Shown here: piece by piece, positions 21,311 through 21,397 of the stretch
Layout of the letters: each line of letters starts with the position of its first letter
How positions within the stretch are numbered: the first letter of the stretch is position 1
Virus record (IMG/VR): IMGVR_UViG_2534681604_000004
DNA length: 36,312 nt
Direction: 5' to 3' (one strand)
From: a virus
Lineage: Duplodnaviria > Heunggongvirae > Uroviricota > Caudoviricetes
Notes under the pieces: model-generated
What the model was told of the DNA's origin: nothing
Seen by the model: only the letters and a program-made list of their open reading frames with translations
Databases searched by the model: none
Translations under genes and position numbers: made by a program

Positions 21311-21397
21311 GGAGAGTAGGGAGCATGGTGCTCAAGCGGTCTTGAAAACCGTCCCATTGCGCAAGCGATGATGGTTCGATTCCATTACTCTCCGCCA
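21311..21397 (+). tRNA. tRNA-like gene, class II (long variable arm), predicted anticodon UGA (Ser-like); atypical D-arm
   Basis: Manual fold: 7-bp acceptor GGAGAGT/ACTCTCC, T-arm with TTCGATT loop, anticodon loop CTTGAAA, variable stem with GCAA tetraloop, encoded CCA. Confidence 0.45.

Follow-up and report, generated by a model that had tools for sequence, protein, structure and literature searches.

A phage-borne tRNA-Ser(UGA) gene in the ban operon of a P1-like phage-plasmid is better read as an 8/4 than as a 7/5 tRNA

A tRNA-Ser(UGA) gene lies in the ban operon of a P1-like (Punavirus-type) phage-plasmid. The window, by which we mean the whole stretch of 36,312 nucleotides analyzed (IMG/VR record IMGVR_UViG_2534681604_000004), carries this gene at 21311-21397 on the plus strand, and the surrounding 2.1 kb matches RCS47, P1, P7 and D6 at 97-99% identity in a mosaic fashion. 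The 87 nt of the gene are GGAGAGUAGGGAGCAUGGUGCUCAAGCGGUCUUGAAAACCGUCCCAUUGCGCAAGCGAUGAUGGUUCGAUUCCAUUACUCUCCGCCA. The features of the operon that bear on it are as follows.

20447-20474, no strand assigned: bivalent C1 repressor operator (Oban / Op72) of the ban-operon promoter, an exact consensus match ATTGCTCTAATAAATTT plus an inverted second site.
20637-20666, plus strand: terminator-like hairpin (20637-20659) and T run at the end of the dicF-like region (annotated in P1), between the promoter and the tRNA-Ser gene.
21311-21397, plus strand: tRNA-Ser(UGA) gene, 87 nt, CCA encoded; found by ARAGORN and by the tRNA-Sec covariance model (46.6 bits), with an identical gene called tRNA-Ser by PGAP and a one-base variant in the D6 record.
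22733-22808, plus strand: second tRNA of the operon, anticodon CAT, homologue of P1 trnI (tRNA-Ile2), from ARAGORN, Rfam and the P1 record.
23084-24454, plus strand: ban (DnaB-like helicase), the distal gene of the operon, from its ORF and homology to ban/dnaB of P1, P7 and RCS47.

This arrangement is that of a P1-type ban-operon cluster, with the tRNA-Ser gene between Oban and ban on the same strand and in synteny with P7 and D6. With the end of dmt at 20456, the tRNA-Ser gene follows about 840 nt downstream of Oban on the same strand, and 3′ of it lie, in this order, a small ORF, a gene of the SPFH/protease type, the tRNA with anticodon CAT and ban. Homologues of Oban/Op72 are annotated in P1 and P7, and according to the P7 record the operator controls the tRNA genes and ban. 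A scan for consensus sigma-70 promoters found none nearer to the tRNA-Ser gene, and no dedicated promoter just upstream of it. Because the terminator-like hairpin intervenes and no consensus promoter lies closer, we treat expression by read-through from Pban on induction as presumptive. Across the window, the C1 operator consensus matched seven times with 0-3 mismatches (947, 15902, 20447, 20458, 30324, 33948 and 33997) against 0.14 matches expected, and the window therefore contains several C1-controlled sites.

Other observations concern the neighborhood of the gene. The tRNA at 22733-22808 is called Met by ARAGORN and several phage records, and tRNA-Ile2 (ileX-like) by the P1 and P7 records and PGAP. 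The tRNA-Asn and tRNA-Thr genes of P1, P7 and D6 are absent from the window, which leaves it with no counterparts for the comparison with these P1 genes that the first-pass annotation had suggested. In P1 (locus L003, 1547-1562 and 1986-2001) a 16-nt direct repeat, GCACAACAGGTAAGGG, flanks a segment of about 424 bp containing both of these genes; the repeat is present in single copy at 20846-20861 in the window, and from the sequences the loss looks like a repeat-mediated deletion. The 5′ flank of the tRNA-Ser gene (21290-21310, ACCGGCCACCACAA) weakly resembles the 3′ end of the Cyrano tRNA-Thr and the spacer that follows it (ACCGGCACCAACACAA), and a CACAA motif precedes the tRNA-Ser gene in many relatives. 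This flank may derive from a former tRNA cluster or serve as a signal for processing. As a remnant of an upstream tRNA we rejected it as too weak, with a match of about 14 of 16 nt to the Cyrano tRNA-Thr end and spacer and no wider similarity. Just downstream of the tRNA-Ser gene and upstream of ORFs of 78 and 275 amino acids, 21507-21627 (plus strand) gave a sub-threshold Rfam match to the sRNA STnc100 (38.6 bits versus a gathering score of 47, E = 6e-7), in a region shared with P1 (L003 2552-2683). The P7-like and RCS47-like parts of the mosaic join in this region, at about 21486-21534. Elsewhere in the window, 3017-3191 (plus strand) encodes a full-length sok antitoxin RNA of the hok/sok type (111.7 bits, E = 8e-25).

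The tRNA-Ser gene contains every element that had been listed in the first-pass annotation, which was made from the letters of the sequence and described an atypical class-II tRNA-like gene. These are a perfect 7-bp acceptor stem (GGAGAGU/ACUCUCC), the T loop UUCGAUU, the anticodon loop CUUGAAA with anticodon UGA, a variable arm closed by GCAA, an encoded CCA, and a D arm with a 4-bp stem (GAGC/GCUC) and a 5-nt loop (AUGGU) that is separated from the 7-bp stem by the three nucleotides AGG. ARAGORN, which had been suggested as a check, returned tRNA-Ser(tga) at exactly 21311-21397 on the plus strand. On the fold preferred below, and numbering nucleotides from the first base of the gene, the cloverleaf is made up of the following parts.

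21311-21318, plus strand: acceptor stem, 5′ strand (nt 1-8), paired with 21386-21393 (nt 76-83), the eighth pair being A8-U76; this helix is 100% paired in homologues.
21321-21333, plus strand: compact D arm, 4-bp stem GAGC/GCUC and loop AUGGU with the conserved GG; all four stem pairs change on both sides among homologues and the GG is invariant.
21336-21352, plus strand: anticodon arm, 5-bp stem and loop CUUGAAA, with the anticodon UGA at 21343-21345, from ARAGORN and covariation.
21355-21370, plus strand: long variable arm, 6-bp stem from C45-G60 to C50-G55 with a GCAA tetraloop; nt 45 and nt 60 are never unpaired and the inner pairs covary.
21371-21385, plus strand: T arm, 4-bp stem AUGG/CCAU and loop UUCGAUU; nt 61:75 occurs as AU, GC and UA, and nt 62:74 as UA, GU, CG and AU.
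21394-21397, plus strand: discriminator G73 and encoded CCA, read from the sequence; the discriminator is G or U across the family.

The D arm is flanked by a 2-nt linker (G9 G10) before it and by A24 A25 after it. A single-sequence fold of the gene is more stable than those of its shuffles (z = -2.97). At curated thresholds, an Rfam scan of the window found the tRNA at 22733-22808 and not the one at 21311-21397, which scored below the gathering score of the general tRNA model RF00005. Once the thresholds were relaxed, the gene matched the tRNA-Sec model (RF01852) best, at 46.6 bits (E = 2.9e-8) just under its gathering score of 47. The gene is thus a genuine tRNA-Ser(UGA) gene that is tRNA-like but off-consensus. 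The class-II character, the UGA anticodon and the serine type proposed in the first-pass annotation are borne out by ARAGORN, the D6 GenBank record and RefSeq/PGAP, while its description of a 7-bp stem and a 3-nt linker is better replaced by the 8/4 fold discussed below.

Annotation of this gene in related elements is patchy. Phage P7 has the identical 87 nt (100%) without annotation, and phage D6 has a copy that is 98.9% identical, with one base different (A12 to C), annotated as tRNA-Ser with the remark that a UGA serine anticodon is apparent and that the amino acid was not called by tRNAscan-SE. The Cyrano copy is also 98.9% identical to the window gene. In RefSeq, PGAP calls the identical sequence tRNA-Ser and the D6-type variant (A12 to C) tRNA-OTHER. 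One copy in a Klebsiella phage is annotated as 'tRNA-Pseudo-TGA', and the gene is unannotated in P7, pJN2-26 and KPN4. We attribute this patchiness to the general tRNA model, since RF00005 passes marginally on some relatives (31-35 bits versus a gathering score of 29) and fails on others, rV5-type and D6-type copies being below threshold. The gene is nonetheless already known and named, as tRNA-Ser, in D6 and in hundreds of RefSeq P1-like plasmids, and for a D6-like plasmid Asn, Thr, Ser and Met tRNAs have been reported (PMC6799933). In Cyrano (locus L006, 1463-1675) and KPN4 (locus L011, 1-109), CDSs for hypothetical proteins are annotated across the tRNA-Ser gene; these calls are probably spurious, the tRNA having been overlooked or disregarded there.

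The gene is widespread. Among 5426 complete E. coli genomes, 333 carry it, nearly always on P1-like plasmids; of the places where it occurs, 335 are on plasmids and 4 on chromosomes. In PLSDB, 571 plasmids from Escherichia, Klebsiella, Salmonella and Shigella match, almost all of them non-mobilizable. Copies also occur as trnS of rV5-like Vequintavirus phages (about 90% identical, 91 nt, annotated 'discovered using ARAGON') and, more distant at 73-79% identity, in Pseudomonas phage Pyxpy02, in Klebsiella Sugarlandvirus and Jiaodavirus phages and in Acinetobacter Saclayvirus. About 18 'Campylobacter phage' records (MG065644-MG065690; many of 128-143 kb, a few of about 59 kb) carry an rV5-type tRNA-Ser at 90-91% identity; this gene and the size of the records suggest that they are rV5-like E. 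coli phages rather than Campylobacter phages. In rV5 (locus L004, 790-888) and Mangalyan (locus L005, 790-888), a 99-nt irregular tRNA-like gene adjoins trnS in the same cluster. ARAGORN reports this gene as tRNA-??? with a 4-base anticodon (atcc); it is annotated as tRNA-Lys in Mangalyan and scores 35.5 bits with RF00005 in rV5.

In order to assess selection on the structure, we scanned IMG/VR for homologues with two patterns and ran ARAGORN on every locus obtained, which yielded 106 unique tRNA-Ser(tga) sequences with a length of 80 nt or more. The first pattern forced U75 U76 A77 and is therefore uninformative on nt 8:76; the second left those positions free, and all variation at nt 76 comes from it for this reason. 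An alignment (A3) was built from 65 distinct family members, leaving out, by our choice, seven relatives that fit only the 7/5 fold. In this alignment 95.8% of the cells of the cloverleaf are standard pairs, compared with 73.6% in shuffles, and 0 of 500 shuffles reached the observed value; when the partners are slid along each other, pairing falls to at most 52%. Changes on both sides were seen in 21 of the 25 cloverleaf pairs. The GG of the D loop is invariant, as are the G2-C71 and A3-U70 pairs (65/65), and the T loop reads UUCRAYU, in which UUC, A58 and U60 are invariant and positions 57 and 59 vary. In 11 of the 65 members, nt 62:74 of the T stem (its second pair; alignment columns 71 and 83) do not form a standard pair, a feature that recurs in several lineages; members inspected by eye (e.g., L020, L021 and L063) have a U·U mismatch in GAUGG...CCUUU.

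Comparison of individual elements gives the same picture. Between the window gene and that of the Klebsiella phage-plasmid pJN2-26, nine positions differ and no pair is disrupted: three pairs have changed in a compensatory way (5:79 from A-U to G-C, 6:78 from G-C to A-U and 12:22 from A-U to G-C), and the three unpaired differences include a change from GCAA to GAAA that keeps the GNRA loop. Sequence similarity to Cyrano and pJN2-26 stops at the borders of the tRNA-Ser gene, leaving it as a conserved island in otherwise unrelated flanks. As judged from these alignments, the family is under selection as a structured RNA.

These patterns bear on whether the gene could be a tRNA pseudogene in decay, or could encode a tRNA-like RNA that acts outside translation, in regulation or as a processing signal. 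The labels pseudo and OTHER that some predictors give to relatives, the sub-threshold RF00005 score, the C12·U22 mismatch in the D6 variant and the U·U at T-stem 62:74 in 11 of 65 relatives could be taken as signs of decay. All four arms, however, show compensatory changes, and hundreds of elements retain G18 G19, the T loop, the identity pairs and the CCA end; the gene is, again, an island in unrelated flanks. We therefore consider loss of tRNA function very unlikely, and no feature speaks for the earlier suggestion of a tRNA-derived regulatory RNA, the arms, the SerRS identity positions and the CCA end all being kept, with compensatory changes.

The sequence of the gene allows two main foldings. 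In the 7/5 reading A8 is unpaired and G60·U76 is the first T-stem pair, whereas in the 8/4 reading A8-U76 is the eighth acceptor pair, C45-G60 closes the variable arm, the T stem has 4 bp and the linker before the D stem is 2 nt and not 3, since the acceptor helix extends to A8-U76. The A8, C45, G60 and U76 of the window permit both pairings alike, and the choice therefore rests on homologues. Both pairs specific to the 8/4 reading covary in the alignment and neither is ever unpaired: nt 8:76 is AU in 60 sequences, GC in 3, CG in 1 and UG in 1, and nt 45:60 is CG in 56, UA in 7, AU in 1 and UG in 1. The 7/5-specific pair nt 60:76, in the same 65 homologues, is GU in 53, AU in 6, GC in 3 and unpaired in 3, with no two-sided change. 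By nearest-neighbor energies, 8/4 is the most stable cloverleaf of the window gene, at -32.9 kcal/mol for 8/4, -31.9 for 9/3 and -29.5 for 7/5, with an unconstrained minimum of -33.6 kcal/mol. The 9/3 fold, in which G9·U75 would form, was rejected for the covariation of nt 61:75 (AU, GC, UA) and for a stability 1 kcal/mol below that of 8/4.

A conventional 7/5 class-II tRNA-Ser with an aberrantly short D arm, a 3-nt linker from acceptor to D stem and G60·U76 as the first T-stem pair is the main rival reading, as drawn in the first-pass annotation, and ARAGORN output is that of an ordinary tRNA-Ser. G60·U76 can form in the window, and 96 of the 106 unique relatives permit either pairing, with three allowing only 8:76 and seven only 60:76. 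Five of these seven have U8-G9 and a D stem that starts one nucleotide earlier after a 2-nt linker, so that they are 7/5 tRNAs with the same linker length; the other two, L015 and L176, are individual outliers. All seven were left out of the alignment because five form a separate 7/5 subgroup and two are outliers. The existence of a related subgroup that is truly 7/5 with a compact D arm (L137, L141, L159, L187 and others) can be counted in favor of a 7/5 fold for the window gene, but that subgroup has U8 and the earlier D stem, and a 2-nt linker is common to both groups only if the group with A8 is 8/4. Together with the failure of nt 60:76 in three sequences while nt 8:76 and nt 45:60 covary without failure, and with a cloverleaf 3.4 kcal/mol less stable, this makes the 7/5 reading unlikely. 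On the evidence of its homologues, the tRNA-Ser at 21311-21397 is better read as having an 8/4 architecture, with an 8-bp acceptor stem and a 4-bp T stem.

Elements of serine identity are present in the gene. Those for E. coli SerRS are G1-C72, G2-C71, A3-U70, G73 and a long variable arm (identity studies cited in PMC5389517). The window gene carries all of these, and its 15-nt anticodon stem-loop core (CGGUCUUGAAAACCG) is identical to that of E. coli serT. The anticodon 5′-UGA-3′ is predicted to read UCA, and probably other UCN codons too if U34 is modified as in serT. As such an anticodon reads UCN and no stop codon, the gene does not encode a suppressor tRNA, and the suppressor-like variant that had been considered at first is dismissed. 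[quoted passage not shown] The anticodon, however, is UGA (which reads UCA) and not UCA (which reads the UGA stop), and no other anticodon occurs among the collected family members, partly by construction as both IMG/VR patterns fixed CTTGAAA; the branch has 12 bp and not 13, and the D stem 4 bp and not 6. We rejected this candidate on the anticodon, the 12-bp branch and the sub-threshold tRNA-Sec score, and regard it as extremely improbable.

Codon use in the window is in line with a role of the tRNA in decoding. Codons were counted in 31 long ORFs of the window and, by the same analysis, in a 50-kb sample of MG1655. UCA makes up 11.9 per 1000 codons in the window ORFs (17.4% of serine codons) versus 7.5 (13.6%) in the MG1655 sample (odds ratio 1.59, p = 0.001), which fits codon supplementation, with the qualification that the UCA effect is modest and the host sample only 50 kb. 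AUA (10.7 versus 3.3 per 1000) and ACA (13.3 versus 6.8), the codons of other P1-type tRNAs, are enriched in parallel. The likely role of the gene, as far as sequence can indicate, is in supplementing serine decoding during lytic growth.

A role mainly in anti-defense could also be envisioned, with the gene providing an additional serine tRNA that by its unusual body evades a tRNA nuclease, of the host or of a competitor, which depletes host tRNA-Ser(UGA) during infection, and that is still used in translation. The family is spread over unrelated lytic and temperate phages of several hosts, and its D arm and elbow are strongly unlike those of serT, both of which would suit such a function. To our knowledge, no enterobacterial nuclease targets tRNA-Ser(UGA), and we count this against it. 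Replacement of tRNAs cut by defense nucleases has been proposed for phage tRNAs, and demonstrated for some (PMC10264068; PMC11464382), but the evasion pattern described is mutation of the anticodon loop (PMC10264068), while the anticodon stem-loop core of the window gene is the same as that of host serT. Anti-defense as the main role thus seems rather unlikely.

Our preferred reading, to which we give a probability of roughly three in four, is that the phage carries a gene for a functional serine tRNA whose anticodon, UGA, reads UCA and probably further UCN codons, and which belongs to a widespread 8/4 phage family with a compact D arm and is not a 7/5 tRNA. We propose the following sequence of events in the cell. 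Upon induction of the P1-like prophage, the gene would be transcribed within the ban operon under control of the C1 repressor, and the transcript would be processed to an 87-nt tRNA already bearing CCA. Host SerRS would then serylate it through the long variable arm, G73, G2-C71 and A3-U70, and EF-Tu would bring it to the ribosome, a step we propose because the acceptor/T helix still totals 12 bp. There it would supplement decoding of UCA, which the phage uses more than the host does.

The basic finding of a serine tRNA in such a phage is ordinary, and the new contribution is the fold, by which the 8/4 class would reach classical and tractable E. coli phages (P7, D6 and rV5-like phages) and about 6% of complete E. 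coli genomes. This rare architecture has so far been described mainly from metagenomes. P7, D6 and rV5-like phages would lend themselves well, as a natural system, to the study of why 8/4 tRNAs are retained by phages, and the inconsistent annotation of the gene (unannotated, "tRNA-OTHER", "pseudo") can be explained by its 8/4 fold. A more speculative extension, which we hold to be improbable, is that unrelated phages keep the 8/4 body as a counter-defense or recoding device that changes which host factors act on the tRNA, either by evading nucleases or turnover or by making it a SelA-type substrate. If this were true, a turnover pathway or defense nuclease that reads the canonical elbow or D arm would miss an 8/4 serine tRNA, and the 8/4 body might serve enzymes otherwise specific to tRNA-Sec, such as SelA.

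Among the closest known systems are the tRNA-Ser genes of D6, P7, Cyrano, pYU39_89 and the RefSeq P1-like plasmids, which are the same gene at 98.9-100% identity. The window gene holds the same place in the ban operon as in P7 and D6; unlike these phages, the window is without tRNA-Asn and tRNA-Thr, and downstream an RCS47-type SPFH/protease module replaces terB/tciA. The trnS of rV5-like Vequintavirus phages shares the 8/4 features and the anticodon arm, but it has 91 nt, with one extra nucleotide in the D loop and a longer variable arm with compensatory stem changes, and it sits in a tRNA cluster of a virulent phage.

The host tRNA-Ser(UGA), E. coli serT, is alike in its anticodon, the 15-nt core, G1-C72, G2-C71, A3-U70, G73, the long variable arm and CCA, whereas it is a 7/5 tRNA with U8 and a large D loop (10 nt as parsed, versus 5 nt), and its D, variable and T arms are otherwise unrelated in sequence. 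From the canonical 7/5 class-II tRNA-Ser more generally, the window gene departs in having A8 for U8, a 5-nt D loop, no covariation for the 7/5-specific pair and a sub-threshold RF00005 score. tRNA-Sec is likewise serylated by SerRS, and has an 8/5 branch of 13 bp, a 6-bp D stem and a UCA anticodon. The window gene resembles it (selC, RF01852) in the 8-bp acceptor stem, compact D arm and long variable arm, and differs in its 12-bp branch, 4-bp D stem, UGA anticodon and score of 46.6 bits against a gathering score of 47.

Another close counterpart is the (8/4) tRNA-Ser or allo-tRNA class. According to Mukai et al. 2017, tRNAs with 8/4 or 9/3 branches surfaced as false positives of a search with a tRNA-Sec covariance model; in E. 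coli, 8/4 allo-tRNAs with serine identity were folded, processed, serylated, delivered by EF-Tu and active in translation; and bacteriophages, too, carry (8/4) tRNA-Ser, with examples from marine metagenomes and alpha-proteobacterial phages (PMC5389517). The window gene is likewise phage-borne and a near-match to the tRNA-Sec model, has an 8/4 branch of 12 bp by homologue covariation, and carries a long variable arm (6-bp stem, GCAA), G73 (the class has G73 or U73) and the serine anticodon UGA. The class is described as having a tRNA-Sec-like D arm with a 'long stem and tetraloop'; the D arm of the window, with a stem of 4 bp (5 at most) and a loop of 5 nt (or 3), agrees with this only in part. 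The possible fifth pair, A15-U19, is not conserved, and the length of the D loop ranges from 4 nt in KPN4 and Roth04 through the 5 nt of the window to 6 nt in rV5. Directly after the GG, a pyrimidine (the Y20 feature) stands in the window, rV5 and pJN2-26 and not in every family member. With the branch, the variable arm, G73 and the anticodon as the basis of assignment, and homologues deciding the fold, the window gene fits as a putative member of the (8/4) tRNA-Ser class.
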